NCBI RefSeq assembly: GCF_964194025.1
Contig: NC_134473.1
Coordinates: forward strand, 35,774,001-35,838,000
Reading direction: 5' to 3'
DNA: 64,000 nucleotides
Source of the DNA: Convolutriloba macropyga
Lineage: Eukaryota
Shown: positions 3,268-63,289 of the stretch, in pieces
How the letters are laid out: each line of letters begins with the position of its first letter
How positions within the stretch are numbered: the first letter of the stretch is position 1
Notes under the pieces: generated by a model
The model's database searches: none
What the model saw: only the letters and a program-made list of their open reading frames with translations
Told to the model about the DNA's origin: nothing
Position numbers and translations under genes: made by a program

Positions 3268-3375
3268 GCCTGAGTCTCTCCGACTGGCTGAATGTGGCTG
3301 GGATTTCAACTTCCTCACTCGATTCCTCGTCCTCTTCGTCTTCATGTCGCTGTTCTTCATCTCCCCCGCTTTGCT
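3268..3375 (-). CDS. Putative DZIP1-like exon 7, 108 nt, phase 1-1
   Basis: Same exon in the next repeat unit, (E)QSGGDEEQRHEDEEDEESSEEVEIPATFSQSERLR. Canonical cag/gtaaga sites, phase-compatible with the donor at 4969. Confidence 0.55.
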
Positions 3376-7561: not shown

Positions 7562-8180
7562 ATCTAACTTGTCCCCAGTCATCGAAAAATGGAACCTTAT
7601 TGCAGGAAATGGTTCTCGCCCTGGCGACATACTTCTGCCTTCATGGAAATCAGGTCGACCAGCTGCTCTAGACGTCACCGTAACTTCTCCACTGCAAGCA
7701 AACATTATAAATCATGCGGCAGAGAATTCTGGTTACGCGATTGAAGCAGCTGAAGAGCGAAAGTATGCACAACAAGAAAATAATTGCTCTGAGCAAGAAA
7801 TTTTGTTGGTTCCTCTGGCTGTTGAGTCATTGGGTGGTCTGTCAGTTACTCTCAAGAAAGCGTTAAAGCGCATAGCTCTGTTAGCTGACAGCAGGAATTA
7901 TCAGTCGCAAGGACATGCTATCGCTTTTGATAGATTGGCTCAGTCAGTTTCCGTTGTGATTGTACGAGGATCGGCTACAATGTTGCTTGCACGAGTCCCG
8001 TAACCCCAAGTTTCGCAATAGTTTTGGACAAATTCTATTTTGGGCAGACATTGTGAACTCCAAGAAGAGTGGAATCTTTCGAGAAGTGCCGCCCAATGAG
8101 AGGGGACCTTCTTTTTGTAATTATTGTCTCACCCAACGAGCGGGGAGAACATAAATAATTTTCAAGAGTTCAATAAAGAT
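7562..8180 (+). mobile_element. 5'-truncated CRE-clade (REL-endonuclease) non-LTR retrotransposon
   Basis: ORF 7569..8003 has RPGDI...ALDVTVTSPL...AEERKY...LVPLAVESLGG...SVSVVIVRGSA, the restriction-like endonuclease C-terminus typical of CRE elements. A short 3' UTR follows, with AATAAA at ~8173. Confidence 0.8.
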
Positions 8181-15312: not shown

Positions 15313-16842
15313 GAAAAATGTATCACGTGATACAATTTTGTCCAAAATTGTATCACGTTTTTCATATTCAAGATCAATTTATCGGATGTTCAGCATTTTT
15401 AGTTCGCATATATTTAAGGCCTCGCCTAATTTGCTACTGAAATAATAATGATAGATAACCAGAAAATGTTTCCAGCTAAAGATTGTCTGTTGTTCCTCTC
15501 CACTAAGCATGTATTAGTATTTCTAATACTAGTTTTCCAATTCAAATATATAAGTTTACCAAAACTACAAAGAAAGCATTAAGTGTTAATGTTATCTTGA
15601 ATACTTTTTGCGTTTTACAATAATTCATTATTTTTAAGGTATTATGGCCCGCAATGATACTCAGTTAGTAAAAAGTTGAAAAAGATAATGCCATGAACAT
15701 AGCTTCAATGATCAATTTGAGATAATAAACACCCATTACAGAGCATATGCCATCACATTTAAATAATTACGAATAAATATGGCACCTGGGCTTCAGGGTG
15801 GAAATAGTATGCACCCACTAAGCTGGTGTTTGTGGGGACACAAACGGAAAAGATCTCATACAGAAATTGGTTTAACATCAAAATAAAAAATGGCAAAAAT
15901 TCTGGGCTTGCAAGAAATAGGGATTCATTTCCCTTCAATTACTGTGCTAAATTTTAAATCTGTTTGGTTTTTCAATGTTGCTGTTAACATTGCTTGAGAT
16001 ACCTCAGGATCATGCATAACTTCTATTTGACTACTTTCACTTAACGATGGCTGCTAGCTATTTATAAAGTTCTGTTTGAACAAATCTTAAAAAATTAAGG
16101 TAAAGTAAAATTGTTGCTTTGGGCCCCTTATTATGCTTTACAATACCATTATTACACTAGTTTATAGAATTAAAAACAAGGGTTTCAGCTGATAATATGT
16201 CTTCAGCTACTTCTAACGAAGTTTCTATTGATCGGAAAGACAAAGGCAGGACAACTGTCAAAACATACTAGAGCTCTTCTATTTTAGCACGTATTTGTTG
16301 TAAGCAGTTTTTGCTAATTTTTTTTACTTTTTTTACTAACTGGTGCAAATTGTATGTTTTAAAGAATTAAATTCCATTGATATCGCAGGCAGCATACATT
16401 TTTTGAAAACTATTTTGCCGGAATTTGTTTGTCACCATTTGTTCTTTTTGGAAATATTTTGATACTTAACAGATCCTAGTTTAACTTTGTTTTTGATTGT
16501 GTTTAAACTTACCTTGTATTCCAACATTTGGCATCTCCATTAACTGGCCTTATTCTTTTACCCCGTTTTTTTCCTTGTCCCGCCTAAGTGGTAAGCAATA
16601 CGGTTTTGTATATTTATACTTTTGTGCTAGATGTTCATATTGATGATCAATTACACAAGATCGAATTATAACTTCTAAGAAGTTCAGCAAAATTTGAGAC
16701 AATTGTGCGATGGCTGTTGGTTAGTAACGCATAATCAGATTTTTTCCCAATGATCAAAGAATTGTTGATACCTAAAGTGTTCACACCAGCTTCTGAATTC
16801 AAAACTTTGTTCAGGCAGGGCAGTTTTGGAGAGAATACTTAC

Positions 16843-17406
16843 GGGGAAGTATTGCTGAGCGCCAGCAGCTACTTTAGCCTGCAGTTCTTTGATGAGTTGC
16901 TTCTTTTTCTTGCTCTCTTTCTTCATCTCAACTATTTCAGTATCTTGTTTCTCACTTTTGGAGCTTAACGTTGAATTCAACTGCTGCAACTTTCTGTTCT
17001 TTATCTCCAAGAAGTTGATCGTTTCTGTCAGGTACTCTTGCGAGTGTAAAAGGTATTCGGATATCAACTGTGACAGTTTGAAAAGTTTTACTAAATTCTG
17101 ATCAACCCCATATCGCCAATCAACTTCAGAATCGATATTGCAAAATGTAACATGAAGTAAATTCTGTTGCAAACATCCAAAATCAGTTTCCTCAGTAACT
17201 CGATCAATATCAACTCCAGCTAGAAGTCGCCAATTTATAGATTCGGTACGCCTGCGGAACTTTAACCCGGCTGTCCTCGGGGGGTTCGGGAACTGAGACC
17301 CGGTCATACCGTTGTGACGAAAACTGCTGTTTGGGTAAGTCTGCTGGGCGTAATTAGCCCTTGAGAATGGTGTAAAAGGGCTTTGTAATATGTCAGAACT
17401 ATCCAT
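16843..17406 (-). CDS. DZIP1: DZIP1/DZIP1L (Iguana)-like exon 1, Dzip-like N-terminal domain
   Basis: FRRRTESINWRLLAGVDIDRV...DFGCLQQNLLHVTFCNI...LVKLFKLSQLISEYLLHSQEYL is the Dzip-like_N signature. Donor TTC CCC|gtaagt at 16842. Confidence 0.92.
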
Positions 17407-18039
17407 AGTAAACAGAAAAACGCCTCTTTTTCAACAATTGTTGATAAGAGTTATTTTGTCCTAAAAGTTATCGTCGTAATCAATTTATTACCACTAACTA
17501 ACAATAATTTTTAATTGCACATATTGCGGTTTAAAATACAAACACAATGCATTCGTTGAGCTGGCGCATTGAAAACAAATAATGGTAGTCTCTTTTGGCA
17601 GTACATTTTATTTTTGTACAAAAACGTACATGAATGCATTTTCACAGCATATATTCTTTACGATGATTTAAGTCAAAACAGGCATTCAGATTTTTTTCAA
17701 TAGAAGCAGTGTTTAATATAAAACAAAAAGGTGAGATAGATATTACAACTCCAAAACGTACCATTCAAATATATTCTTAACATATTGTGCAGTTATAAGC
17801 GTATGAAGGTGCGTTTGATATTTAATTTCTTATTCTTAAATGGATGCATCTGTTATTTTGCACGTGATCAGATAAAAAATAACAGGAACAAAGATGGAAA
17901 AACAGCCATCAGCAAAATAGGTAGCAGTTGTAAAATTATTTTCTTTTTTCGGTAATAACAGATTCCATGTTCCATTTAAAACGTCTTGCAATCCCATTTT
18001 CCTAATTCTACAATAAGTTCCGATAATTAATCGTGAAAC

Positions 18040-22260: not shown

Positions 22261-23398
22261 GTAAAATAATTTTTGAAAATTAAAAACTGGTAGATGCCGA
22301 AAACGACACGAAGAGTCGTGCAATAAAAACCCTTAACTGACCTTACCTATTTCAGTAATATCAAAAACAAAAGGAAAAAGCAATATAGTTAGAAACAATC
22401 AACCGTTATTTCAGAATGTGGGTAGGTGGGCTAAGTATGTTGGGTGACGGGGAGTGGAAAGGTAGGCGAGGTGTAGACAGCGGGCAGATAGGTAGGTGGT
22501 TAGGGGGTAGGTGGGTAGGGGATTGGTGGATAGGGGGTTGGCGTGTGTGTATGTGGGGGGGGGGGGGTAAGGACGTGCAACGGGTTGATGAGGGGTAGAT
22601 AGTGGGTTAAAGGTATGGGGGCAATTGACTTGATAGTTAGGTGATTGATCTGTAGTTTAGACAGCTACATGGGACATTCATGGGATCCAAATTCTGGAAG
22701 TGACTTTTTCGCCATGAATAATACCAGCAAATCCTAATTACTTTACACAACAAATTTGGCTTCTGTTAAAGTCCAAAGTTAGAAAACAGAAGTCAACGTT
22801 CAAACACAGTTAAATCTCTGAAAAGAAAGAGATAATGAACAAATCAGCTGAAAAAAACCTGTCTAATATAAATAATCCTCTTCGACTCGTAAACAAGACC
22901 AACACGTTTCATGCATTTCACTTATGGACACAGCTTGAGCTAATCGGTTAGAACCTGTGGATAAGAGTACAGTCTGAAAATTCTATTCTCAGGAAATAGG
23001 GCAGTTTTTTTCAAAACTGTTTCAGATAGTACAAACCAAATTTCAAAAGCCAGTCCTTTACATCTCAGAAATTTGCAAAAATTCATGCTATCTACGGCTA
23101 CCTGAGCTGTATACGATCTTATTAGCGAAACAGCTGTGCTGCTCAATTCCTCGATTGGAGTGAACAATTAATCACAAAACAGATATCACAGAACAAAAAC
23201 CAAAGCAAAAAATTATTGGCCAATGTCAAGTTCAATTTCAAACTTTTCAGAACCACCATTCATACCATGAATTTGTCTCCTCAACAGTTTCTGAGAATCG
23301 CATACTAAGAGACTAGTAAGAGGCAACGTTGCTCAGCAACTTAATGCACTACGGGCTTTACTTGTTTATCCCGTTTCTGAGGTCAAAAAGTTAAATGG

Positions 23399-23521
23399 TC
23401 AGACGAAAAAACGATCAGACGAAAAAACGATCAGACGAAAAAACGATCAGACGAAAAAACGATCAGACGAAAAAACGATCAGACGAAAAAACCATCACAC
23501 GAAAAAACGATCAGACGAAAA
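23399..23521. repeat. 16-bp minisatellite (TCAGACGAAAAAACGA)x~7.5
   Basis: Head-to-tail units, no spacers. The unit resembles the GGTCAGACGAAAAATCG core motif of family-1 elements. Confidence 0.95.
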
Positions 23522-23718
23522 GTTGGTAGTACCAAAAACATCAGAACTAAGAATTGCTACGAACTTCGGTTGAGAGCAATTTAAAAATGCATGAGAACTA
23601 TATCACAATTTTTCTTATCCGTGCGCACACATAAAGACACATTATACTTAGGGAAATTAACTTAAAACTGCTCACAGAAGCTCAGTGTTCCGCTCAAGAG
23701 TGTTAACTCTGCCCCTAC

Positions 23719-26095
23719 CTGAATCTTGGTTGTCATTCCTTCCTTTTGTATTCCGATGGAACTCCTTTCTGTTTCCCGAATCCCAATGAGAAGATCCACC
23801 TCCACTGCTATCATAGAATCCTCTATTGGCCTGTGAAGTTCTCTGCTTTGGTCTAGCACCCCCAGAAGTGTTTCTGTTCTCGTTATTTATATGTTCAGGT
23901 GGATGTCTTTCGACACGTCCGCCTCCACCATCATTTTGTCCCACTTCATCGTCTAAAATTCCGCCTCCAGTATGTCTATGACTTTTCTTACTCTTTGGTT
24001 GATTAGCAAATGATTCACGAGACGGCGATTGAGAATCAACACCACTCTGTGGCTCAAATTTCCTGCCGTATTTTGATCTACTTTTAGAAGGCTCAAATTT
24101 TTGACCGTCAGAATTTTGATTACTGTTACCACGGAATGCTCCAGCCCGATTCGGTTGATTCGGATACCCATTTGCCTGACTCGGTTCCGGCTGCTCTTGA
24201 TTTTCATCATCATCGTTCTCATCATCTTCAACTTGCCAATCAGCAACTTTAGCTCCAACTCCAGTTTTCCAGCTACTGGTGCCCCAATTAGGGTTTTGAA
24301 CTTGAAACCCTATCTCACGATTCTCAAAAGAGTCGGCGACTCGAACGGAATTATCGTACGTGTCGTCGTACTCGTCTTCGTATTCAAATTCATTCACGTT
24401 TTCTGCATCCCGAATATCAGCTATCAAAACGTTTCTCGCATTTGCGCTTGTCGATTGATATGATTCGAATTCAGTATCAGCGTCGAAATCATTCACAAAA
24501 CCGTACTTGGAAACAATGTCATTTTTCATATCGGAAGAGAAATCGGCTTTAGATTTTGTTCCGGGCTTATTTCGATCGCCTTTCAAACCTTCTTCGGTTT
24601 CTTGCTTAGACTTCCTCAAGTCAGATAAAGTGATACCTTCTGGTAAATTACAGTTGTTCTCAAAAAGGTCATTTATGGTAAGGTCAATTGATAAATTTCT
24701 TCTCTCCAGATAATACTCGATAATTAGATCATCAACATCGCTGATGATCTCTTTAACTTGTAACAATGCTTCTTTCATTTTATTATCACTCCCATACATG
24801 TCAGAAACGTTATAGGAGGTAGATGTTTGTGGATCGCTTCCGCTTTGACTAGAGGGCATTTGGAACACTGGCAAGTCATCATTTAGTTTGTTCTCAAGCA
24901 CAATAAAAGTTGACATGTCTAGCTTGCCTTTATTCTCTTTCTTAGATGAAAAAATAGTTAATTGTGCAATGCTGTCATGAAGCGTCGTATCAATATCAAA
25001 ACAATTTCGAGTCCAATTTTGCTCAACAAGTTTTGTCAGAAATTCCACACAATCCAACCAAGAATCTTTAGTCAGACTGGGCAACAAAAATTTCTCAATC
25101 ACTAATTTTATTAGAGATATCACATTAGAAGCTGAAATTTTCAAATTCTGCATTAAACCTGATCTGATTTCGACATCTTCAACTTGCAGAACCGTCCATG
25201 TCAAAGCCTTCAGAACGTTTTCCACAAACTCTAGCAACCGATCCAGGATATTTCCCGGGTCATAAAACAGAAACTCGACAACTTTAGGAACTGAGTCCGC
25301 AAATGCGTACAGGTTGGAGGTCAAATCAAGACACAAACTTGACAATTTGTAAATGGTGAACAAATCAAGCCCAGCTGCCGGGTTCAACTCTAGAGATAGT
25401 TCACTCATGTCAATGATAGTCAAACCACATGCCCGCTTAACGGAATTCATTGTTTTAATAATTCCCTCTGAGTACATCTGAAATCTTGCTCGAAAATCTG
25501 ATTCATTTTGCTTGATAATGTTTTCACATAACTTGGAAAGCAATGGAGATTGCTGATAGTATATACTGCAAAAATTAGACATTTCAATCGCGTCAAACCA
25601 TTTCGACTGGCAGTGCAGTCTTCCAAAATATTCAGGACTCATAAAACCTTCATTCGACTCTTTATATGTTGAAAGCCTTAGACAAACCAAGAACACTTTC
25701 TGCTTCAAAACCGTCTGTTTTTTCGCAACTTCTTCATTCACTTCTGTGTCTTGCTCCCAACATTTTGCAAAATTCGTTAAGAACGATTTGAGAAAAACTT
25801 TGAACGTTGAATCAAAGACAACTTGAGACCAGAATTTATGGTGTGGTAGTCTTAGCAGGGATTCAACATCGCTAATCATGGAATCTAGCCTCTGTCCAAA
25901 CTGCTCCGAAGCCATGAACTCTATCTCTTTTGCATTAGGCGAGCAGTAAGTCAGAAAGTTTAGGCTACACATCCAATCCGCATGCAATGCTGGCTTTTTT
26001 GACCCGTTGCTAGGGAGAGATATTTGACGTTTCTCCAAAGGGAAGATTGGCAAACAAACTGAGAGGGAAGAACTCATTAAGGGATCATTGGACAT
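23719..26095 (-). CDS. ASCC2: Activating signal cointegrator 1 complex subunit 2 (CUE domain), large first coding exon
   Basis: LLRLPHHKFWSQVVFD, VFLVCLRLSTYKES..FMSPEYFG, CUE-like LLQVKEIISDV...TINDLFE and EYEDEYDDTYD motifs. Donor TCA G|gtaggg; joined CDS = 870 aa. Confidence 0.9.
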
Positions 26096-26163
26096 TGTTA
26101 ACCTGAAAAGATATAGTGACTCTCTAATTGTAAAATAACTGACAGTTTCCTTCGAGGTATAGC

Positions 26164-26177
26164 GTATCTATGGCAAC
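26164..26177. promoter_or_regulatory. Candidate RFX X-box
   Basis: GTATCTATGGCAAC fits GTHNYY-AT-RRNAAC, 70 bp upstream of the ASCC2 ATG. Probably within a 5'-UTR intron (acceptor cttttcag at ~26103). Confidence 0.45.
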
Positions 26178-26417
26178 TCTCCTGCTTTTGCTTAGTTCCT
26201 CTGTAAGATGCTATTCCGGCACTGTGACTATGCGCTTAGTTATTAGGACACTAAGTTATCGGTGCAGATACCTTCGAAAGCGAGTCATGTAAACTTTCGG
26301 TTTCATACAAGTTTTATCGAAGCAATTGAACTAAAGTACGCAGGGATAAGAAAGTAAACGTCAATATATCAGGCAGATGACATTTACAAAAAAATTTTCA
26401 GCCCTCAAAATACAAGC

Positions 26418-26563
26418 ATTGTCATAGTAACTTTCACATTTAACATAGTAACTTTCACATTTACCCTAGTAACTTTCACATTTACCATAGTAACTTTCAC
26501 ATTTACCCTAGTAACTTTCACATTTACCATAGTAACTTTCACATTTACCATAGTAACTTTCAC
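26418..26563. repeat. 21-bp minisatellite (TTTCACATTTACCATAGTAAC)x~7
   Basis: Direct tandem units with period 21, each carrying an X-box-like 14-mer. Confidence 0.95.
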
Positions 26564-27860
26564 CTTCAAATCATGAAACTATACCTCTTCAGCCGTTTCA
26601 GTGAAACTGAACAACAAAAACTCATACTAAAGTTGTAAAACCGAAACCAAAGTATAATGCTTAGACTTGGGGGGAAAAGCCGCAAATATTTCAAAAGTAG
26701 CAGCAGCATCCTCAAATTTTGCCAACTTCCAAAAGGCTGTTAAAATTTTTGTTGCTTTCAATAACTAGTAGCATGTTTGTAAGTAACTGTAAGCTGGAAT
26801 CAGCTAAAAGAGAACTAAAAAATTTGCGTGAAAGCATAAGTTCGCACAATTTTAACATAAATCTGGCTTGGGAATGCCATGCATGTTGTACATAAGTATC
26901 TTTCAAAGTTGCTTAGTATCAGCTGATAGCTGTAATTCACAAAAACGACATCCATCTCGGATAGTCAAAGCTGAAAAACTCTGAATATCAATAAAGGATA
27001 ACTTTTGATCAGGGAAAACAAGGAAACAATAACAAAGAAATGGAGAACATAAACCGACTAACAACTTTACTTCTAGGTGAGAGCAATTGATATCACTCAA
27101 AAATGAAGTAATTGTTTCAAAGCGTCGTCCGGGAGCAAATAAAAACAATTCATCTAAATAATGGCGGATGAGAAAACCGAAAAAAAAACATTAAGCATTT
27201 CAAATTGTTCAAAAGGTATTGTCTATGCGAATTCTGCTTCTTTTCACTTTCCTCTTTTGAAATTCCTGAGTCTTCCATAGTGTAAATATTGCGAAGAAAG
27301 TGATGTCAGACGTGTCAATTGATATACAATGTATAAGTCCAACGTGCAAACTCATAAAAAGTTGAACAGTAGCAAGCGACACGCAGAGGATCGCATAAAA
27401 ACTAATATATATCTGAAAACATTGGGTACGAAAAACACGCAATAAAAGGCGAATAAGGACAAAATGACGGTAGAAGGTAGAGCGATGAGAGTACAGAGAC
27501 ACAATGAAAAGAGAAAAAGACAAACAGCAAGACAGACAGACAAAGAAAAAAGTAAAGAGATTGTGGGTAAGTGTATCTGCGTGCCTATGTGTATGCAAGG
27601 GTGTGTGTTTTGTCCGTGATGCGTGTATGTGGCAGAAACGTGTTCATACATGCAAAATCCTCTGGTATTTGGCAATGATTTTTTCATTCTATACTTCCCA
27701 ATTCCCAGTCGAGGAGGGTAAAAAACTAAACATACTCGACTAACGTCGGAAGAATTGCTCCCCAACGACTACTGGGAGCTCGAATCTATTGCAAACTGCT
27801 TCAGTCGGTGGAATAACTAAATTCACTTCAGGAGGCTTCAAACAACGTGGTTTTTAAATA

Positions 27861-29346
27861 CCAATATAACCACGAATAAAAATTAAAGTAAAAAAATTAC
27901 CAAGTTTTGTCGCACTTTTCATTTGACTCTTGGTAGTAAGCTGCCGCCACCGGAGTTCAACTCTTGATTCTTGTGAATGCGAGACAAAATTTAGACCACG
28001 CAAAACAAAAAAAAATCAAGTGCCGAAAAGTCACTCGAAAAATCAAAACAGTCAAGCAAAAATTTTGCATCGAAAAGACCAACACGTTAACAATTATTGC
28101 CTCAACCTTGGTCCGCGAGCAATCAGATTTAATACACCGGAATTTTTCCTTTTTGAGAGCAAAGATATAACAGCCCCCAGCATCAACTTTATTCCTTTGG
28201 GTCTATCTGATGCGTCCCATTGCTGAGAACCAAAACTCCGATTTGTCAAAGAAAATCCAAATAAAAAAGAGCATCAAAATACCAGCAGTACCAAGAGCTC
28301 AAATACATGTTTCACCTTTCTTTTAAGAAAAACAAACGAACGAAAAACTAATCGCCAGAAAAAAATTTGAATTAGAGGAGAGGGAAAGAAAAGAGAGCGC
28401 GGAGAGAAAGACCGAAAAAAAAGAAGCTATTAATTAGTGACAAGAGTGCGGTAGAGATAGAGGTAAAGTAACAGGCAAAAGAGATTAAGGCAAGGATGTA
28501 AGAAGGCAGGGAGCAAAAAAGGGACAACACGAACGATGACTGCCGCCAACAGAAACAACTGCGGGGCAATTATATTCACAGGCTATACCCCCGATACATA
28601 TTTTCATGGATGAAAAACAACTCCGACCATGGAGGGATTCGAACCCTCCCCACCTACAGAATTTTCAACAGAAGCATCAATCACTCAGCTATCAGGCCCC
28701 TAAATTGCCTGTTTAATAATCACTTTGAATTTAGCACCAAACTTTACTTCAGGGAGAGAGAGAGATCAATTGAGATAACTGAAAAAAGAGGAGCATGGTG
28801 GAAAAAGTCACTTGGAAGTCAAATGATGTTTTAGAACAAAAGCTCAAAAACGGTCAAGCGACAATTTTGCAAAGAAACACAGCAATTCACAATAAAAGCC
28901 TCAAACTTCGTTCGAGAGCAATTAATTAGAAGGCAATGAAACGAGAAAACGGACCAATAACATGATACAATCTAAATCATACAAACTAAAAAACAAAACA
29001 TGTACGAAGACATTAAGAAAAAGAGTAACACAGAACTAAGAGAAAAGGAAACAGAAAAAGTTTAATAAATGTTAAAAAAAAACAAACAGAAATAAAGGGT
29101 AGGAAAAGTCACTTGGAAGTCAAGTAATGTTTTAGAACAAAAGCTCAACAACGGTCAAGCGACAATTTTGCATAAACACAGGAGTTGACAATAAATGCCT
29201 CGACCTTCGTTCGAGGAGCAATTATTTGGAAGAAATGAAACGAGAGAATTTTATTATATATATATATATATATATATAAAATGTACCAATATACCAAACC
29301 TTCGTTCGAGAGCAATTAATTCGAAAGAAATGAAACGAGAGAATTT

Positions 29347-29393
<47 letters not shown>

Positions 29394-30600
29394 ACCAATA
29401 TACCAATATATTCCAATATGACCACGAAAAAAAATTAAAGTAAAAAATTAACCAAGTTTTGTAGCACTTTTCATTTAACCTTTGGCAGTACGCTGCCGCC
29501 ACCGAAAATCAACTCTTGATACCTGTGAATGCGAGACAAAATTTAGACCATGCAAAACAAAAAAAAATCAACTGCGGAAAAGTCACGCCAAAAATCATAA
29601 CAGTCAAGCAAAAATTTTGCATTGAAAAGACCAAAACGTTAACAATTATTGTCTCAACCTTGGTCCGCGAGCAATTAGACATATTACACCGATTTTGTTC
29701 TTTAGAGACCAAAGATATAACAGCATCCAGCATCAATTTTTGCTCCTTTGGGTCTATCTGATGCGTCCCATTGCTGAGAATCAAAAATCCAATTTGTCAA
29801 AGAAAATCCAAATAAAAAAGAGCATCAAAATACCAGCAGTACCAAGAACTCAATAAAACATGATTTACCTTTCTTTTAAGAAAAACCAACGAATGAAAAA
29901 CAAATAGCCAGAAAATTTGAATTAGAGGAGAGGGGAAGAAAAGAGAGCGCGGAGAGAAAGACCGAAAAAAAGAAGCTATTAATTAGTGACAAGAGTGCGG
30001 TAGAGATAGAGGTAAAGTAACAGGCAAAAGAGATTAAGGCAAGGATGTAAGAAGGCAGGGAGCAAAAAAAGGACAACACGAACGGCGACTGCCGCCAACA
30101 GAAACAACTGCGGGGCAATTATATTCACAGGCTATAGCCCCGATACATATTTTCATGGATGAAAAACAACTCCGACCATGGAGGGATTCGAACCCTCCCC
30201 ACCTACAGAATTTTCAACAGAAGCATCAATCACTCATCTATCAGGCCCCTCAATTGCCTGTCTAATAATCACTTTGAATTTAGCACCAAACTTTACTTCG
30301 GGGAGAGAGAGAGCAATTGAGATAACTGAAAAATGAAGAGCATGGTGGAAAAAGTCACTTGGAAGTCAAATGATGTTTTAGAACAAAAGCTCAAAAACGG
30401 TCAAGCGACTATTTTGCAAAGAAACACATCAATTCACAATAAAAGCCTCAAACTTCGTTCGAGAGCAATTAATTAGAAGGCAATGAAACGAGAAAACGGA
30501 CCGATAACATGATACAATCTAAATGATAAAAACTAAAAAACAAAACATGTACGAAGACATTAAGAAAAAGAGTAACACAGAACTGAGAGGAAACAGAAAA
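27861..30600. repeat. Direct duplication of ~1.2 kb (27861-29059 / 29413-30600) of composite repeat DNA, separated by (TA)n tracts
   Basis: Long near-identical blocks, e.g. 28372-28800 vs 29920-30350. (TA)n at ~29255 and ~29352. Confidence 0.9.
28621..28700 (-). repeat. tRNA-derived Pol III promoter-like segment (copy at 30171-30249)
   Basis: Minus strand GGGGCCTGATAGCTGAGTGA (A-box-like)...GGAGGGTTCGAATCCCTCC (T-arm/B box). Not a complete tRNA. Confidence 0.6.
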
Positions 30601-53394: not shown

Positions 53395-54094
53395 TGTATA
53401 CTAGAGGGTATGGGTTGCGAAGGTTCAAACTTCTGACTCGATGGTCGTACTCCTAGTATATGCTATCTTTCTAAGCCTGATAAGTCGCATAAAAGTATTT
53501 ATTGATCTAAGTAAGTAAATTTGACTAATTGATCTAGTTATAAGTTTTATATAATCTTTATAAAAATCTAACATTGATAAATTTACAAGTAATGTTATGA
53601 GGTTATAAGAGTTAAAAACTTAAAGTTATAAAAGTTAACTTATAAAAAGGAGAAGGTCGGGAAAGTTAGTAAGAACTTTACTAACTTGAATTATTATCAG
53701 TAACTATTTATCCTTTATTGAATAAAGTTCTGATTTGTATAATATCTCCAACTATTCGTTATTCGATATAGTTGAGAAAAGGTTTGGCAATTCAGATCTG
53801 AATTAGTTTTATTGGAGATTACTTTCTCAATTTGGAGATATTAAATTCTCAGTTTCTCTGAGTTGTTAATTCTTAATTGCTCAAAGTTGTGCTTTTTGCT
53901 TTGCTATATATAGTCTTCAGAACGGGATAATTCCCGTCCTGCTGGCTGGACGGTAAAATGTCCGTTTGACTGAACGGACATTTTACGCAAAATGAATGGT
54001 TCAGTTAATTGCATCATTCTATTTTTAGAATGATGTAATTTGAATACTTAGCTTAGTTAAGCTAAGTATTCAACATAAGCATTACTTTAGTACA
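53395..54094 (-). repeat. 3' LTR (700 bp)
   Basis: TGTA...TACA termini. By eye ~14 substitutions and 2 indels versus 62593-63289. TATA-like CTATATATAG at 53904-53913; minus-strand AATAAA at ~53714. Confidence 0.95.
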
Positions 54095-54192
54095 TCCCGA
54101 CACGGTCCTTCGTGATGGTAGAATGAAACAACTGCATAGAAAAAATTTACAAAATATAATAAAGGTTAAATATAAAGCTTTACACGCAATGT

Positions 54193-54837
54193 TTAGAATA
54201 TAAAAATGTTTTGGTGGCTCTCCTCCGGGCTACAGGTTGGAGAAATGGCGCGGAAGTCGCCATTACGATAGTCACGTAGTTCTCGCAGCAGGCTGTCGTT
54301 GCGCTGCTGGAGTTGAAAGTTTTTGTATCTTTCTCTCAGAAAACTCTGCTCGAGGTTACGGATGTAACTGTCTTCAGAGTTTTCTAAATTAGCGGTGAGA
54401 AGGTAGAACGGGACTGACAAAATTTGTTTGTCAATCACTAGGTTCTTTGCGCGATAAGTTTTAGTTTTGGGGTTTTAGGACACGAGTTTATACAAGTTAG
54501 CATGGTTCTGGAGCTTTTACTTCAAGCTCATGTCATACTTCGGGTGTCCTTTGAAGCTGGGGTTACATACAAGCTGCTTTGTCTTCATTTGTCGATGAAT
54601 CTTGTCTTGTATTGTTAGTGGTTTGGGCAGGACTGCTGCCCCTGGTGGTTGCGATGGTCCTGGTTGTTGGGGTTGTTCCGCTAGTTGTTGGGTGGTTTGT
54701 TGTTCACGCAATTGTGGTTCCACGGTTGTCAGTAGATATTGTTGTACAATGTCGGTAGGGAGTTTCAATGGAGGCTGGTCTTCTAAGAGTTCCTCAAATG
54801 CTGGTAGAAGAAAGTCGTTGTCATCTAGTGCTATGTT
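54193..54837 (-). CDS. Two candidate accessory ORFs of the retroelement (acidic + Q/P-rich 54517-54837; coiled-coil-like 54193-54438)
   Basis: Open frames between env and the 3' LTR. The first opens exactly after a ttcttctag acceptor-like site. No recognisable homology. Confidence 0.35.
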
Positions 54838-54885
54838 CTAGAAGAATTATAAGAATTATTTATAGGTGTAATTAATTAGATTTAA

Positions 54886-55960
54886 TTACACTGGAGAGGT
54901 GGGAAAATCATCATTGCTAGATTGATTTTCTCTCTCTTGTCTAATTGCCTGTAGCTCACTTTGTATAGGAGGGTATATGTTAATAGTCGGCTTTTTATAA
55001 GTTGGGGCTTGTACTAAACGTTCTGAGTCGCCTCTTTCTTCGATAGGACGAAATACCGAAGTCACTATGGACTGGAAAAGTATATTAAAAGTGGCTGATA
55101 GTATTACTTTTCCAAAACTCACTGAAGCTCCTGTAATTTTATGTATTTGTAGTGCCCGAATGATGCAAACTACAATGTCGATTATGAATTTCACAAAAAG
55201 GAATAGAGCGAAAGTAATTCCGCATTGCTCCAAATAATAGTGTACTCGGCCGAAGGCTTTTATATACCGGTTGTGTAAGAATTGTGACGAGATTAGACAA
55301 TCTAAATATATTGTTTTTGTAGTGTAGTAGTTGCTATAACCACTAGGCTGGCTTTTATTATGTTGAATCTCAACTAATTCACGAGAAACCTCTTGCGCTG
55401 CGTCTTTCATTTCGGTATTCAAAGTTACATCGTTCCAAAATGCAATCATGTCTTCTTTGACATGAAAAGAAACTTCCTGTCCGTTTTTAAATTTCATTTA
55501 AACCATTTTGTGTTTCTGATTGCTGGGTGCAAATATTGCTGGCCCAGTGAATTGTGTTATACTTGGAGTTAATTCGATCCAAGAGTTATCATTTTCAATA
55601 TCTAGTTGAAAAAAATTCTTTTGTTTGTTGTTACATGGTTGTTGTTCAGCAGTAGTAAAAGTTTGTCTGCTAACCGGATCGATAAAGCGAGCTTTATTTT
55701 TATATAACACAGGTATCCTATTATAACAAGTATCCATTACTTGTAAAGGCGAATAAAATTTTGGACTCTGATAGAGCCAGGATATATTGCCGTTTGTCTC
55801 TAGAAACATAGATCTGTTATTTGTTAACAGAAAACCAGCCAGCTTAGGGCTGAGACGCGAATATGCAAGTTGTGTATTTTTAAGTGAACGTTCTAGTTCA
55901 CAAATTTGCTGTATAGTATTTATTTCAGAGAGTTGTAGCCTTCGGAAATTAGTGTACTGA
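54886..55960 (-). pseudogene. env: env-like glycoprotein, C-terminal part (chuvirus G / herpes gB-like class III fusogen family)
   Basis: ICELERSLKNTQLAYSRLSPKLAG...GNISWLY...CYNRIPVLYKNKARFIDPVSR...C, then a hydrophobic anchor GITFALFLFVKFIIDIVVCII. One in-frame stop at 55498-55500; N-terminus missing. Confidence 0.75.
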
Positions 55961-55989
55961 TAATAGTCAAATTTATAATAATAGTCAAA

Positions 55990-58900
55990 ACTATGATAAT
56001 AATCATCATAGTTAGTACTATAGTCCTGTACTAACTTGTCTATTTCTTGTTCTTTAGGAAAGTATTCTACTAAGTGATTTCTATGCACTACTTTCTTTTG
56101 TTCAGTCGAGTCATGAACAATTTCATACGTAGTGTTAGTTATTTGTTTAGTAACAGTATAGAGTCCAGAGCGTAACTCTAGTAGCTTTTTGGATTTCAAT
56201 AATCCTTTAGCGTGATTCTCTAGTAAAACTTTACGACCGATTTTGATTGGTTTACCCAAATTAAATCTATTCCTATACTCGTGTGCTTTGTTTGTAATTA
56301 GCCGACGGCGAGTATATGTTTTACTATACATATTTTTGAATTCGTTCTCGCCTTGTAGTATAGTACTAGACAACCGATATTGTAACAGTTTATCTACCTT
56401 CTCGTTTTTACAAGAGTTTTCACAGTGAGTGTCTAAGTGAAGGTCTTTACAATACTCTGAAATACAATTCCATCTATTGTCCCGTAGTAAGCCAAGCTTA
56501 AGGGAAATTGGAATTTGTGGTTTAATACCGAATATTATCTCGTACGGAGTATATCATGTACTGTAATTTATTGCAGTATTATGCGCAAAGGCAAATTTAT
56601 TAGTAAGGCTAGCCCAGTTCGATCCGGTGTCGTTAATAAAACTGCGCAAATAATTTGCTAAGTTTTTATTTTGTACTTCAACCTTGCCATTTGTACAAGG
56701 TGAGTATGAGGTCCGTGGTTTTAATGTAATTCCGAATTCGTGCGTCCAGTGCACAAAATCATTACTCAAAAATGCAGTACCATTGTCATGTACTATTTGT
56801 TGAGGGATCCCGAATCGTGCTATGTATTTTTCTAATAATTTAACAGTTTCTGGTGCATCAGCGGTTTTTGATGGATACACTTGTATAAAACGAGAAACTA
56901 TCTACTATAACTAGACAAAATTTCTTTTGGTTACTGCAAGGTCTAAATGGGCCTTTTTGGTCTATGTGTATAGTATGAAATGGGGTTGTTTCTAATTCAC
57001 CCCACTGTTCTAGGGGTGCTTTGTTCAGATCATGTCTTTGTGGTTTATTCTTTTGGCAATCAAGGCAGTAATGTACTAGCATGGTAATCCATTTGTACAT
57101 TCCGGGCCAATGAAAGAATCTACTGATGTTGTTAAATGTACATGTGTCTCCACGATGTCCACTTAGCGGATTATTATGTGCTAACTCAAAAAGCATTTCA
57201 TAAATAATGATAGTGGAACACATATTTTTCTGTCATATAGACCGTTCTCGTCTGGTTTATTGTAACATAGCAAGTCATACTGCTCCTCAAGTAGTAGCAG
57301 GTTAAATATATTCTTTTATGCACGTAGACCTTTACAATGTTTAATTGTACTTGTGCTCGGCGGTTCTTTGCCTGCTTTTAGCCATTGGCGAACGGCTTGT
57401 AAAACGGGATCATTTATTTGTTCGCGCAGAATTGTATCTGTGTCTAGTTGAGATTGTTTAGTAAACTCTGTTAATTTTAGTAGTAAGTCTTTACAAGATA
57501 CTTTAACTACTTCTGTATGTAGAGTTGTCGGTTCCACAATGTCATACCTGTGCGTGCGTTGCTTGTATTCCTCCTTCGCTTGTTCTAGTTCTTGTATTAA
57601 GGATATATCTACATTTCCTTTTAGCAATTCTAACCAGTCTTCATCGTCAAGACCGTCGTCTACTGCATGTACCTCTTCGGGTATTTCTTCATATGTGTGG
57701 TCGTTAAGGCTTTCTGTAGATACATTTTCCGAAGACATTTTTCTGATTTGATTTATTTGTCGTCCATATCTGAACGAGTCGGCAATATTGTATATTGCAC
57801 TACATGTCTGTTCTATATCGTCACTTGCGTCGTTAATACTAAAATCCTCGTCGGTTATATTTAGTATTTTCTTTTTCTTTCCGTGTATATGTGCAATTAC
57901 CGGATAGCTAGTATTTGGGGGTGCTTTTTTTTCGTCACAGTGTAGTATTGAATTATTTATCGGTTTGTAATCCGATGTGTAGAAGCGAATGTCCTTTGGT
58001 CCTGTTTTGTGTTTAATTTGGAACTTTCTCGCTTCTTGTGGGACTGGTCTACTAGGTTAGTCGGGGAACGCAAGGTTTTTACCTTCAGTGTATATTATCT
58101 TTAGATTCTGAAATTTAGTAAGCACAACATGATACTTAAAGAATCTATTTGATAATTGTCCGCGGCGAGACTAGAGGAACAATATAGGTCTGTGATCGCA
58201 AAATAGATATATTGGATAGGGGGAGCCTATAATGTAGAACTCGTAAGTTTGTAATGCTGATATTATTCCGCACAGTTCTCTATGCTGTGGGGACATTTTC
58301 TGTTCTGCTTTATCGAATACACGGGAGTTTGCAGAAACAATTCGTTTCCCTTCGGGAAAATGTTGTATCAATATACTACCAGTTCCTAAGTTGGAGGAGT
58401 CAGCATGTATATGAAAGGGATATATTGGGTTGGGAATAGCGGCGGAAATATCGTGTGAAAATTTTGCTTTCAGTCTATCGAATACTTGCTGGTGGCTATC
58501 CAGCCATTCGAAATTCGTTTCATTCTTGACTAAGTCAAATAGCAGTTTTGCGTCAATATGATAGTTTGTAACATAATTTGCATAAAATCCCATTGCCCCT
58601 AATACGCTGAGGACGTCGGTTTTCGATTCTGGCGTTTTCAAGTTTTGTATATCGAGAATGCGTTAAGTGATTGGGCTAAGTGTCTCTTTCGATGTTACAT
58701 GCCCGAGGAATTTCACTTTTCGTAAGAATTTTGTTTTATCCGGCGCAGCTTTTAAGTTTGCTTTACGCAGTAGTGCACTATATTCACGTATTACTGTGAA
58801 CATTTCTTGTTTATCTTGTGCTTGTTGTAGTGTATCGTCAATATAAGTAATAGCTTGCTTTTTCTCTATAAGCGGTCCAAATGCACAACGCATAAGTTTA

Positions 58901-61100
58901 CTAAAGAAGTTCGGAAGGGACTTTAAGCCGTAAAATCCGACTTGATAGGTATATTGACGTCCACCTACAATAAAACTAGTTAATTTCTGAGTTTCTTCTG
59001 TAAGGGGCACTTGATGATAAGCGCACGACAAATCACTACTTGTAAAATATGCTCCATTTACTCGGGTCATCAAAACTCGTAGTGGCTCGAGCGGCCAGCT
59101 CGAGTTCCTTGTATCCGTAATTGAGTTGAGGTAGCAAGCATCGATTGCAAGTTTTACATAGTCGTTCTTAGGCAATATAATAATTGGGTTTACAAACCAG
59201 CTATTTAAATCGTCGTGCTCATTTAGCTCGCGTATTATTCCGGCTTGTATTAATTCGTCCATTAACGCTTCTAACTTTTCACGCAAATGTAGAGGAACTT
59301 TGCTTGGACGTTGCTTTTTAAATTCGCAATCTTTCTTAAGGGGTATATGAAATTTCCGTTTCGTGCGGCTGATATTATACTTATGATGGGAGTATACATC
59401 CTCATCATCTAGTAGAACTTTTAGAAGCACCCTGAATTCGTCGTCCGTTAAATCACTCTGTGTGAAATCAAACTTTTTAAGGTACTCGATATAGTGTGTA
59501 TAGTTCTTACTTGCATCTTTGGTTCGTGTATCGAGTCCTTCTTGAACAACTTCATGAATGATGAAGTGGTTTTGTTCAGTTGTTATGAACTTGGGGAATT
59601 GTTCAGTATTATTGGGCTTGCATAATGTTTTTGCATCATTTGAGAAATCAGTTGCTACTTCAGCATCACTTTTGCATTTGTTCACAATTTTATCGCCTAC
59701 AATTTCAAATATCTCTTCGATGCTTTCATCTGTGTATTGTGCATAGGACGGCATTTGATTAATTTCGGCTTTACTCACATACACATATATTTTAATTCCC
59801 CAAGAATTAAATACATTATATAGCAATGCAGATATCTCAGACCAATCCATTTTGTCTAATCCACATGCATTTTTAGGCATAGCCATGCATCTAATGTTCT
59901 GCATTAGAAGTATGGTGCGAAGTTCGAATAGTGCAGTTGTAATACTTTCAATTGTCGGTTTACTATTATATTTTTCTTTAGTTATTAGACAAACGATTTG
60001 GTGTCCGAGCCTAGGAGCAATGTATTGTATTACATTTTGGTTTATTGTACTTCCGTCACGATCGTTCACTTCTACTTGCCATTTACAATGTTCTCCCAAG
60101 ACGTGGAACTTTTTACACAATATGAGTGCAAAGCCTTTGCTCATAGTGCAGTCCTTAGAAACTGTGTGTATAATAGCCATACTACTATTAAAAATTGACT
60201 GTTCTTCCTGGTTAATATAATTCATGCAAATATCAGACTCGTTCGACTCAGCCTCTTGTACTCAGTTAACAACTGTACTAAGCATAAAACAATTATCGAG
60301 TTCTTCATACTTATTTAATATTGAGTATGCGAACTCACTACAATCACGCATGTTGAATTTGCGCGTATCACGACTTAATACTAGATCACAAACAGCGTAC
60401 CCAATAATACCTTTATTAAGTGTAATAAGGTGATTCTTGTGGTTTTCTATTAGTACAGGTAGTGTTTTCTCTTTTTGTGTACAGACTGTGTTAATAAACT
60501 GTGTTTTTGTGCGGTAGAAAAAAGTGACTTTGCGGTAACATAAATCAGTATTTGGTGTTTGTACAAATAGGTTGATCTTGCCTGTATATAAAGTGGCTGG
60601 AACAAGATTATTGCTTCTAATTCTGATACTTGTGGATACTGTTTTTCATTATTCAGTGTTCTATAACTGATTACTCCTGTGTGTTCTTTCAATTCTACAG
60701 CAGGAATATCGAAATACAGAGCTTTAAAGAAAATATGACAGAAATCAACACCAATCAGGTTAGATGTTCCTTCTTGTGTAATCCATACTTTATAGTTTGT
60801 TCATACTTTCCGTCAGTGTCAAAGTATGCTGTTACTGTAGTATTGCCTAACATACGAATTTGTGATCCATTATAGGATTTTGTGATATTTATTGCTGAAA
60901 AAATCCTCATGCTAGGGTTCAATTTTTGCATTTCTAAAAATGTGGGGTAATTTATTATCGTACACGTCGAGCCTGCGTCGATTAAGCATTCAATTTCTAA
61001 TCCACTATTCTTATTTATGTCTCCGGTGGTGAAATAGTACATATTTAGGTAAATCCTAGATTTTGGATTACTATTTGTACTAACTTTCGGAGACTTTTTA
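55990..61100 (-). pseudogene. pol: pol polyprotein (disrupted)
   Basis: PR CLIDAGSTCTII (~60990). RT SDLSCAYHQVPL/YGLKSLP/YIDD (59340-58663). RNase H HADSS...RELCG...CDHRPI (58641-58171). IN HNNPLSGH...CLDC, IHID, HDNGTAF, NGKVE (57223-56554). GPY/F-like RSGLYTV (~56160). Confidence 0.93.
59776..60225 (-). CDS. TARG1/OARD1 (Poa1p/DarG-like) macrodomain within pol, in frame with RT
   Basis: AIIHTVSKDCTMSKGFALILCKKF...CLITKEKYNSKPT...MAMPKNACGLDKMDWSEI...VF....IKIYVY. Compare human TARG1 [24 protein letters not shown]...YLITKKRASHKPT...LSMPRIGCGLDRLQWENV...VF....IKITVY. Confidence 0.9.
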
Positions 61101-61172
61101 AAGGAAAGAAATCTGTGATAGCATCGGTGTAATTATTTTGCTCATAGTATTCTGTTTGTTGGTTTTGATCAT

Positions 61173-62511
61173 CTACCCAGTGGACAGAGTGGGACGAGCG
61201 GGGTTGTTGATTATGATAATTACTACTTGATGCCTGAAATTGATTGAAGTGCGATTGGGGGGATAAGAACGTTGAAAATTTTGATTCTCACGTTCATAAT
61301 ATTGTCTTGCATCAATTTCATGCGGACTAAACTGGTTGTTCTGGGGGAACTTTTGTTCAGAGGATTTATTATAGTTGTTGTTATAGTGTTTATTTCCGTA
61401 CCTCCGATTGTCATATCCACTGTTAGTATTATTTGGACGATTCTGGGTATTGAAATACGGTTTACTGTTAGTCTGTTTTTTGTAGTCAGTACTGAAGGAT
61501 GTCCTTTTCTCCTTTTTCTCAGTGAGTTCTCTTTTCATTTTTTAAAATCCTTCATCAATCCTATGTTTACAGCAGTTAAAAATATTATGCCCATGATTGC
61601 GGCAACAGTTGTAGAAGCGTGTGTTATTCGGTCGTCCTTTTACAGTGGGGTCTTTAAAAGACCCTGAGTTAATAGCGCTAACTTCGTTATTTCTTATTAG
61701 GCTAGTAAGCTCTTTAATTTGTGCTTCAAGACTACTAATTTTATCATTTGTTTGTCTTACTGTGCCGTCGGTGCTAACAGAAAATGTTAAGTCTTTAGTT
61801 ATTAAGTGGTTTTGTATTTCGTCCCATGTTTTATCCGGATTTTCTATCCTATATTCATGCGCTTTGCGTTTTAGTGAGGGGGGTTGTAAACCTCTTATGG
61901 CAAAATCAATATACTTTTGTTCCCTTTGTCTCTGCTGCACTGTTCTTTCAGTGGCAATTTGGCCAGGGTCAGTTAATCGTGCGTGTATTTTTTCAGGCCA
62001 TCCTCTATCAGCAGCATGCTTAATTCGGTGGAAATAATTTTTAATTAGTTCACCTTCTTGTCTGGTGGCACCTTCCACTTCTAGTCGATACTTGAATTGA
62101 TTACGGCTATCAGTGAATCTATTTATGAAATCTCCTTTAATTTGGTCAAGATTTCTTGTGGGATCTATAGTATTGAACCACTCTAATGCGGTATCTGTCA
62201 GTAGTGATCCAAATAGCGCTTTGCGTCTATTTTGGTGATTTGTTAATGCAGTGGGGTCTGTCGGTAACGTTGTACCTAAGGAGAAATTTATTTTTTGTTC
62301 AAGTTTAGTTCCAGAAATCACTTGCATTTTGTCTAGGGTCATTTCCCGAGAAAGTGACAAGTGACATATTAGGATGAGACAGGGGGTATCAATTAATGTT
62401 CTTGTTACTGTAGTAGTGCTGCCTGATCCGGAACTTAAAGTTGTTGTGCCTGTACTTACTACCCGAGCCGGTTGAAGGAGCTGTACTACTCGGCGTTCCT
62501 CCTGAGGACAT
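61173..62511 (-). pseudogene. gag: gag (frameshifted)
   Basis: ATG at 62511 (MSSGGTPSST...). Retrotransposon capsid-like LTDTALEWF...IKGDFINRF...RQEGELIKNY and a degenerate CCHC knuckle (YNCCRNHGHNIFNC). Confidence 0.85.
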
Positions 62512-62574
62512 TATGTTAGATTTGTTTTGTTATTATTATATTTTTTCATTAGAAGATAGAAATATTTATGCGTG

Positions 62575-62591
62575 CCCCACTGGTCGCACCA
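62575..62591 (-). other. Primer-binding site
   Basis: Minus strand TGGTGCGACCAGTGGGG, 1 nt after the 5' LTR. The complement ...CCCAC-TGGTCGC-A-CCA looks like a tRNA 3' end (Leu-type T-stem; identity uncertain). Confidence 0.7.
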
Positions 62592-62592
62592 G

Positions 62593-63289
62593 TTTATACT
62601 AGAGTGTATGGGTTGCGAAGGTTCAAACTTCTGACTCGATGGTCGTACTCCTAGTATATGCTATCTTTCTAAGCCTGATAAGTCTCATAAAAGTATTTAT
62701 TGATCTAAGTAAGTAAATTTGACTAATTGATCTAGTTATAAGTTTTATATAATCTTTATAAAAATCTAACATTGATAAATTTACAAGTAATGTTATGAGG
62801 TTATAAGAGTTAAAAACTTAAAGTTACAAAAGTTAACTTATAAAAAGGAGAAGGTCGGGAAAGTAAGTAAGAACTTTACTAACTTGAATTATTATCAGTA
62901 ACTATTTATCCTTTATTGAATAAAGTTTTGATTTGTATAATATCTCCAACTATTCGTTATTCGATATAGTTGAGAAAAGGTTTGGCAATTCAGATTTGAA
63001 TTACTTTTATTTGAGATTACTTTCTCAATTTGGAGATATTAAATTCTCAGTTTCTCTGAGTTGTTAATTCTTAATTTCTCAAAGTTGTGCTTCTTGCTTT
63101 GCTATATATAGTCTTCAGAACGGGATATTCCCGTCCTGCTGGCTGGACGGTAAAAGGTCCGTTTGACTGAACGGACATTTTACGCAATATGAATGGTTCA
63201 GTTAATTGCATCATTCTATTTTTAGAATGATGTAATTTGAATACTGTTTAGTTAAGCTAAGTATTCAACATAAGCATTACTTTAGTACA
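62593..63289 (-). repeat. 5' LTR (697 bp)
   Basis: Direct repeat of 53395-54094; the inner terminus is mutated TG->TT on the + strand. Confidence 0.95.

Follow-up and report, generated by a model that had tools for sequence, protein, structure and literature searches.

INTRODUCTION

Dezordi et al. reportedly described, in 2020, the Anakin elements of mosquitoes as BEL/Pao elements with a Chuviridae-like glycoprotein. A recent survey extended such pairings to the Ty3/gypsy group: among 1,512 env-bearing Ty3/gypsy elements, Chary and Hayashi (eLife 2026; PMC13524379) counted 221 of the ENV_HSV type, and the hosts of these gB-type elements include cnidarians, ctenophores, tunicates, rotifers, bryozoans, flatworms, nematodes, annelids, and arthropods. 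According to the available parts of that paper, the mosquito BEL/Pao glycoprotein resembles both Chuviridae env and herpesvirus gB and adjoins gypsy pol in 114 arthropod elements. The same parts argue for an ancient (Precambrian) acquisition of env, with room left for several lineages, for losses, and for rare transfer; how gB-type elements enter cells is called unknown there (PMC13524379). An earlier study, in its accessible sections, reported Gypsy fragments beside such glycoproteins with no clear capture and counted six separate endogenisations (PMC10084718). The statement of a first-pass annotation of our locus, that such envs occur mainly in BEL/Pao elements, is therefore out of date, given the 221 gB-type Ty3/gypsy elements and the 114 arthropod gypsy neighbours (PMC13524379).

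Two further env-bearing gypsy elements are useful for comparison. Drosophila gypsy carries an F-type env, whereas the env described here is of gB type. The Env of Tor, from Oikopleura, is a membrane glycoprotein that is expressed beside germ cells and cleaved by furin, according to the accessible part of its description (PMC4402516), whereas the acoel elements are known from their genes alone. Xenacoelomorpha are not in the list of sampled groups given in the available text of the survey, and nine acoel or xenacoelomorph name stems are absent from its seven text supplements (PMC13524379). We found no earlier report of env-bearing LTR elements in acoels or other Xenacoelomorpha in the literature searched; among the papers listed, one named the phylum, as one of the groups whose genomes were screened.

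Here, we describe a locus from the acoel Convolutriloba macropyga, contained in a stretch of 64,000 nucleotides that we call the window (contig NC_134473.1, positions 35,774,001 to 35,838,000). It is very probably a gag-pol-env element of the HSV/gB type within Ty3/gypsy (an "errantivirus" in the operational sense of Chary and Hayashi), now dead, and one copy out of a multi-family radiation in an acoel genome. The novelty lies in the phylum of the host, in how large and young the radiation is, and in the accessory genes; the pairing of env with gypsy had already been described.

RESULTS

The window holds a decayed gag-pol-env element

An LTR pair and a target-site duplication delimit a Ty3/gypsy LTR element of 9.9 kb at positions 53397 to 63289 (Table 1). 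The duplication, CAGT, is 4 bp long and flanks both ends. The LTR termini read TG...TA in this family and in two related families, compared to the usual TG...CA. The primer-binding site complements the 3' end of a host tRNA-Met(CAT) and shows no mismatch in five of five same-family siblings. A genome search with the tRNA-Met 3'-end pattern returned 63 matches, compared to 0 for the reversed control, and ARAGORN found a tRNA-Met at all six primer-pattern loci examined. Most of the matches (51 of 63) are located in two tandem arrays, C1:77.67-77.77 Mb and C4:55.03-55.13 Mb, with a spacing of ∼0.9 kb. This acoel tRNA-Met 3' end differs from the primers of the described HSV/gB-type errantiviruses in that it is not in the accessible version of their primer-binding-site table (PMC13524379).

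Table 1. Features of the env-bearing element, in window coordinates
Feature	Positions	Strand	Basis or remark
5' LTR, 695 nt, TGTACT...AGTATA	62595..63289	-	13 mismatches and 3 gap columns relative to the 3' LTR
Primer-binding site, complement of host tRNA-Met(CAT) 3' end	62571..62591	-	2 mismatches in 21 nt in this copy
gag, broken (1 stop, 1 frameshift)	61099..62511	-	Sibling alignment; 465-469 aa in siblings
pol (PR, macrodomain, RT, RNase H, integrase), broken by stops and frameshifts at several points; the final ∼150 aa are deleted	56002..61132	-	Pfam, sibling comparison
TARG1/OARD1-type macrodomain, inside Pol between protease and RT	59776..60177	-	PDB 4j5q, E 2.2e-16
RT (YIDD) and RNase H, Ty3/gypsy type	58177..59400	-	Pfam, PDB match, RT tree
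Integrase: H2C2 zinc finger, rve core, p58_C C-terminal module	56002..57232	-	Pfam
Junction of ∼2.74-kb deletion (pol end, ∼1-kb spacer, env codons 1 to ∼420)	55976..56000	-	Sibling alignment, genome search
env remnant, C-terminal half of predicted gB/chuvirus-G class III fusogen	54886..55975	-	Pfam, model, sibling alignment
Fourth ORF (ORF4), with 2 internal stops in this copy; the sibling version has 203 aa	54196..54840	-	Starts right after T-rich ...TAG
3' LTR, 698 nt	53397..54094	-	LTR comparison; preceded by a merely imperfect purine-rich tract

The Retrotrans_gag family matched the gag of the window copy weakly (E 0.11) and that of a related family at E 3.6e-4. In siblings, pol is an ORF of 1,870 aa that overlaps the end of gag in the -1 frame; at another locus (L081), gag and pol form a single frame of 2,058 aa. 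Along Pol, the Pfam domains follow the order RVT_1, RT_RNaseH(_2), Integrase_H2C2, rve, and Integrase_p58_C. Two further Pol regions were observed. The first, of ∼130 aa between the protease and the macrodomain (60262-60645, minus strand), has no Pfam family and is retained in related families. The second is an acidic linker of ∼330 aa from RNase H to integrase (57316-58056, minus strand), which may contain the "mini" bridge domain of ancient errantiviruses. The window copy is dead, with gag, pol, and env each interrupted by stops or frameshifts, and the description of this copy as "potentially infectious" in the first-pass annotation does not hold. The intact siblings described below may plausibly be infectious.

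A private deletion joined an env remnant to integrase

An env remnant after integrase had been proposed, and our analysis confirmed it. Read from 55959 to 54889 on the minus strand (the start given previously, 55960, is one base off frame), the remnant encodes 357 aa, with its single internal stop (55498-55500) as X. It matched Pfam PF24664 (Monjiviricetes_fusion) at E 1.3e-17 over profile positions 332 to 601 of 653, a value at which the match is not due to chance; a full sibling env matched the same family at E 1.7e-29. The motifs CELER..L....L.P..AG..L, ETNG, CY..IPV.Y, FIDP.SR......PC, and FG...KFIID..A..IH..G are present as previously quoted, but a cysteine that had been given in brackets is absent here and present in the sibling. 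The proposed transmembrane (TM) segment and cytoplasmic tail were likewise borne out by the hydropathy profile, whose main peak covers residues 252 to 270 (with weaker peaks at 242-260 and 285-303) and is followed by a polar tail.

The remnant corresponds to residues 426 to 782 of a 782-aa sibling Env, with which it is 93 to 94% identical. It therefore lacks the hydrophobic segment of the N terminus, along with the domains predicted as fusion and PH-like. On the sibling model, it begins within the long central helix, and what is left comprises some of that helix, the crown, the C-terminal helices, the TM segment, and the tail; nothing remains of the fusion and PH-like domains, which are rich in beta structure.

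The frame that env shares with integrase, also noted previously, is present in this copy, but it is the product of a copy-specific deletion of ∼2.7 kb, as env is a separate ORF in siblings (782 aa, located ∼1 kb downstream of pol). All five aligned siblings have 2,737 to 2,741 nt more between window positions 56001 and 55975, and the junction sequence has one match in the 1.18-Gb genome, the window copy. A filler of 25 nt at the junction is similar to the flanking sequence, which suggests templated end-joining. Across the junction, 351 codons read without a stop, as they would if the in-frame fusion were a functional or domesticated host gene. We consider this scarcely credible, given that the junction was found in the window copy alone, that stops lie immediately upstream of and within the frame, and that the fusion would lack the N-terminal hydrophobic segment and the fusion domain. 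At a different sibling locus (L086, 7187-10000), env and the ORF4 core form one continuous frame of at least 938 aa, probably as the result of a lesion.

The element belongs to Ty3/gypsy rather than BEL/Pao

When the RT-RNase H of a sibling was compared against the PDB, Ty3 was the best match (E 6.9e-35), followed by foamy virus (1e-20) and MLV-type enzymes (2e-13). We also built an RT tree of 24 rows from the same genome, consisting of 7 env-element rows, 8 gypsy rows (PF17919), and 9 BEL/Pao rows (PF05380), with exact duplicates removed; the tree left out three env-element rows (L094, L083, and L095) and has no named reference elements. The env-element and gypsy rows split from the BEL/Pao rows at 100/100, while the gypsy and env groups were each below the star threshold (87/95 and 89/94). 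The env-bearing RTs formed their own group, ∼25 to 30% identical to the other gypsy RTs sampled. No Pao-type Pfam domain (Peptidase_A17 and others) was found on any Pol scanned. The Pol order PR-RT-RH-IN excludes copia only.

The same assignment emerged from the neighbourhoods of sibling envs. Env was present in 26 of the 28 stretches tested; gypsy pol adjoined it in 23 of those 26, and a Pao Pol was found in 0 of 28. The three envs with no pol in the stretch examined were at L084, which has an N-gap, and at L085 and L088, both apparently truncated. In every full sibling examined, env sits between pol and the 3' LTR.

BEL/Pao elements are abundant in this genome (at least 150 scored PF05380 matches), and Anakin has an env of this same family, so one could propose an Anakin-like BEL/Pao element here, or a free-standing chuvirus glycoprotein EVE that landed in a gypsy copy by chance. 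Both proposals have a vanishingly small probability in our view. The missing Pao domains, the RT tree, the 0 of 28 stretches with Pao pol, and the constant position of env between pol and the 3' LTR speak against them. On its RT and domain content, the element is Ty3/gypsy, as the first-pass annotation had claimed, and clustering of its RT with Belpaoviridae was not observed. BEL/Pao identity is thus refuted by the Ty3 best match in the PDB, the RT tree, and the Pao Pol count.

A recent glycoprotein EVE from Jingchuvirales was considered separately and rejected, given 9 to 17% identity in the rows returned from BFVD, no relative in IMG/VR, and pol and an LTR as neighbours. No nucleoprotein or L-polymerase ORF was present among the ORFs scanned.

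Env models as a class III fusogen

We modeled the ectodomain of a natural sibling, 93 to 94% identical to the remnant, with AF2 and an alignment of 120 rows. The model reached a pLDDT of 80.5 and a pTM of 0.59, compared to a pLDDT of 33.5 for single-sequence AlphaFold. In a Foldseek search against the PDB, all 40 matches listed were herpesvirus gB (best E 9.4e-13, TM-score ∼0.33, rmsd 11 to 15 Å for the postfusion forms). A VIA structure search of 48,161 chains placed HSV-1 gB first (Z 9.6, rmsd 10.0 Å, 398 residues aligned), followed by other gBs; Chandipura G, Bourbon virus GP, and rabies G scored Z 4.9 to 5.2. In BFVD, the best matches were xinmo-, qin-related, and chuvirus G proteins (E 9e-29 to 1e-22, TM-score up to 0.59), which were 13 to 16% identical to the sibling Env. 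PDB sequence and profile searches with env gave no match. The global fit of the model to gB is loose (TM-score ∼0.33, rmsd 10 to 14 Å, pTM 0.59). Judged on the model, Env is of the class III gB/chuvirus-G fold. The resemblance proposed in the first-pass annotation was thereby upheld by PF24664 and by the Foldseek, VIA, and BFVD matches, including the suggested Foldseek comparison against class III fusogens, which did return a structural match. The glycoproteins of Jingchuvirales, Xinmoviridae, and qin-like viruses share this class III fold with herpesvirus gB and with the acoel env, which differs from them in sequence (9 to 17% identity) and in being carried by a retroelement.

Several features of the ectodomain are shared among the envs. 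Fourteen of its cysteines are kept in 86 to 98% of the alignment rows covering them, and hydropathy peaks are predicted at both ends in seven of seven envs, the N-terminal one being deleted in the window copy. Full-length env was recovered from other genomic copies, as had been recommended, in the form of the 782-aa ORF with its N-terminal hydrophobic segment. Two hairpins are predicted in domain I, with one conserved cysteine each and tips that are partly hydrophobic and not strongly conserved; this region, too, is deleted in the window copy. No furin-type site was found in six of the seven envs. Because of the weakly conserved hairpin tips and the lack of this site, it is the fold alone that argues for fusion competence.

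Young, constrained families have kept env with pol

A genome search with the first 136 aa of the remnant returned 2,068 candidates, of which 150 were scored and more than 50 had at least 85% identity. Nine of the 150 scored matches lie in open frames of 782 aa, and 30 lie in frames of 896 to 908 aa. The part of env that is missing from the window copy was found as well: all 40 scored matches, from 326 candidates, were 95 to 100% identical. The two LTRs were 97 to 100% identical in 10 sibling pairs and fully identical in 3 of them, and a clean 4-bp target-site duplication was observed in four of seven sibling pairs.

Comparison of the remnant with five siblings gave a dN/dS of 0.10 to 0.12, compared to 0.11 for RT, and values of 0.05 to 0.16 were obtained in 10 of 10 sibling env pairs. 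By these estimates, env is under purifying selection, with a constraint as strong as that on RT, although this selection could reflect a role other than infection.

We compared eight families, among which env identity falls to 33 to 52% (one close pair shares 92%) and RT-RNase H identity is 47 to 62% between the two main groups. The env and RT trees recovered the same split of four and four families with SH-aLRT support of 100, and finer branches were partly unresolved. As read from these trees, env has long been retained with this pol lineage. Since the env and RT trees agree and the viral matches are only 13 to 16% identical, the data fit long co-descent rather than recent capture.

These elements have much in common with the HSV/gB-type errantiviruses, as far as the latter are described in the available sections of PMC13524379. 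Shared features include a Ty3/gypsy Pol, the order gag-pol-env, LTRs, a tRNA primer-binding site, and young multi-copy insertions, as well as a gB-like fold, an N-terminal hydrophobic segment and a TM segment, a furin site that is not conserved, and codivergence of env and pol. Anakin has the same env family downstream of pol in an LTR element, with a BEL/Pao Pol there compared to the Ty3/gypsy Pol of the acoel elements (PMC13524379 and PMC10084718, accessible parts).

The first-pass annotation had gone further and proposed an independent capture of env. In its most developed form, this would mean that an acoel gypsy lineage took a Monjiviricetes-type RNA-virus glycoprotein early in acoel history, separately from other gB-type errantiviruses. 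The closest folds are indeed RNA-virus G proteins (E 9e-29 to 1e-22) and not herpes gB, the env-bearing RTs stand as a group of their own, acquisition of env by several Ty3/gypsy lineages is allowed in the accessible text of PMC13524379, and the six endogenisations of PMC10084718 set a precedent. However, the viral matches are 13 to 16% identical, compared to 22 to 50% for relatives in sequence collections, IMG/VR holds no relative, env and pol codiverge across the eight families down to an env identity of 33 to 35%, and gypsy elements with gB-type env are widespread (PMC13524379, available sections). We regard a separate capture as unlikely, and the claim as originally made is unsupported, given that widespread occurrence, the common split of the env and RT trees, and the low viral identity.

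Beyond these families, env had no match in phage records or in IMG/VR. Two JGI metagenome contigs matched it at 38 to 41%, and at 1.3 to 1.4 kb they are too short for context. All 20 clusters of distant env relatives that were looked up had no annotation beyond "hypothetical protein".

Pol carries a macrodomain

The domain between protease and RT has its sequence match in human TARG1/OARD1, from which it differs in sitting within a Ty3/gypsy Pol polyprotein. The catalytic pair of human TARG1 is Lys84/Asp125 (PMC8120803, in the part available), and Lys and Asp occupy the corresponding positions, assigned by spacing, in four of five Pol rows checked. The Lys motif was not found in the macrodomain of the family with a 784-aa Env. 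The macrodomain, with a dN/dS of 0.28, is present in the families with Envs of 782, 784, and 902 aa and absent in those with Envs of 769 and 828 aa. We lean slightly toward a putative role in reversing host ADP-ribosylation.

Database annotations of some retroelement polyproteins include macrodomains, so the feature may be known. In the literature searched, with subscription journals and Repbase outside its scope, we found no report of a macrodomain in a gypsy LTR retrotransposon. Fish epsilon-like ERVs provide a precedent among retroelements, with the macrodomain as an additional ORF in theirs compared to a domain within Pol in the acoel elements (PMC4977317, citing Basta et al. 2009, in the part consulted).

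Additional ORFs lie downstream of env

ORF4 follows env in the window copy and in siblings. A core of ∼120 aa is 33 to 38% identical across three families, and the window copy and a sibling differ with a pN/pS of 0.05. There were 47 synonymous changes in 116 codons, far above env, and recombination is the sole explanation we offer for this excess. The ORF4 frame opens directly after a TAG in 9 of 10 sibling loci, with T-rich sequence upstream in the families with 782- and 784-aa Envs, and a version of 284 aa has no Met. In the simplest reading of these sequences, ORF4 is probably a spliced 3' exon; TAG also bounds the frame as a stop, so this match is partly built in. Four contig-only runs on a sibling stretch gave even coverage and no splice-type joint among the best 15 of 35, and they are uninformative on transcription. 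ORF4 matched no Pfam family, and its best Atlas score, 0.78, is a lead at most.

Other families have different ORFs in this region. In the family with a 769-aa Env, an ORF of 611 aa with a coiled-coil-like C-terminal half lies between env and the 3' LTR (L129 417-2249, L132 499-2331, L135 715-2547); it had no Pfam or PDB match. RING-finger-like ORFs (PF13920, E 3.4e-6) occur downstream of env in further families (L133 2053-2788, L143 357-779, L130 1787-2281) and are candidate members of the elements.

As far as the available main text of PMC13524379 goes, the described HSV/gB-type errantiviruses come with no mention of a macrodomain, ADP, accessory genes, or splicing, while the acoel elements have a macrodomain and post-env ORFs.

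Other features of the window

Elsewhere, the window contains a host gene with a CUE domain in a single open frame of 830 codons (23675-26167, minus strand), which we take to be ASCC2-like. It has only three relatives at E≤1e-20 (98, 62, and 45% identity) and thus seems to be fast-evolving. An exon of an Iguana/Dzip1-like host gene is located at 16738-17430 on the minus strand (PF13815, E 4.5e-29). A frame of 171 aa at 7488-8000 on the plus strand is, by eye, a candidate for the C-terminal endonuclease end of a retroelement. The repeats include a ∼1.92-kb unit present three times in tandem at 93 to 99% identity (377-4765), 16-nt and 21-nt minisatellites together with a ∼1.55-kb tandem duplication (23377-23552, 26402-26590, 27855-30593), and many dispersed short repeat families throughout.

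Beyond the window, the single mitochondrial COX1 of the assembly reads in the invertebrate code, with genes on both strands, and has Symsagittifera roscoffensis as its best named match (92%), followed by the acoel Baltalimania (75%) and by other animals at 64 to 68%, which places the host in Acoela (Convolutidae, Xenacoelomorpha). Nuclear COX1 fragments on C13 are just 73 to 84% like the mitochondrial contig and do not tie it to the host, for which we relied on the Hox genes. The 20 homeobox matches examined, out of 80, include an anterior, a central, and a posterior Hox-like gene, each on a different chromosome, together with a Cdx-like gene, with classes assigned from motifs; acoels are expected to have such a set.

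DISCUSSION

How might the intact relatives of this dead copy replicate? By comparison with known families, Gag-Pol would be made through a -1 frameshift, and, following Ty3/gypsy biology, the RNA would be reverse-transcribed from tRNA-Met and then integrated with a 4-bp duplication. Env would form a glycosylated, membrane-anchored trimer with which particles from one cell could enter another; the simplest transfer would be from somatic or stem cells to the germ line, as for Drosophila gypsy. On this analogy, and on that with Oikopleura Tor (PMC4402516), we think it probable that Env on particles carries the RNA to another cell, the recipients likely being germ-line or stem cells. The macrodomain may strip ADP-ribose that host defences put on element proteins or nucleic acid, and ORF4 may be an accessory protein made from a spliced RNA. 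After its insertion, the window copy decayed and was shortened by 2.7 kb, the fusion domain included, so that it makes no working fusogen.

Env could also work without infection, with the element copying itself inside the cell and env kept for cell-cell fusion, budding, or receptor blocking against related elements. Such a role would fit the lack of a furin-type site in six of seven envs and the weak hydrophobicity of the hairpin tips; moreover, herpes gB requires partner glycoproteins, and the gB-type entry mechanism is the one called unknown in the accessible text of PMC13524379. We nevertheless judge it quite improbable. Among very young copies, env is as constrained as RT, as one would predict for a step on which every replication cycle depends, and the class III architecture is complete, with anchor and sequons.

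Taking transfer between cells as the preferred role of Env, we can entertain a broader and more doubtful proposal, namely, that acoels host currently active "complex" Ty3/gypsy retroviruses that combine gB-type entry with counter-defence genes, like the complex retroviruses of vertebrates. The latter genes would comprise the Pol-packaged TARG1 macrodomain, which would erase host ADP-ribosylation, a post-env protein made by splicing, and the RING-finger or long coiled-coil ORFs of sister families. The proposal is tentative, and the odds seem to us to be against it. If true, it would mean that a deep branch of the Bilateria restricts retroelements by a PARP-type mechanism and that the elements evade it.

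The locus shows no new route to retroviruses, because the pairing of env with gypsy has already been published (PMC13524379, available sections). The macrodomain and the post-env ORFs suggest that invertebrate errantiviruses carry counter-defence accessory genes, of which we found no description in the literature. The position of Xenacoelomorpha allows vertical descent and repeated capture to be tested directly against each other, and these elements fill a gap in the errantivirus survey. With several young multi-copy families and an env as constrained as RT, this genome also provides a natural system in which to ask how a lone gB-type protein works without herpesvirus partner proteins.
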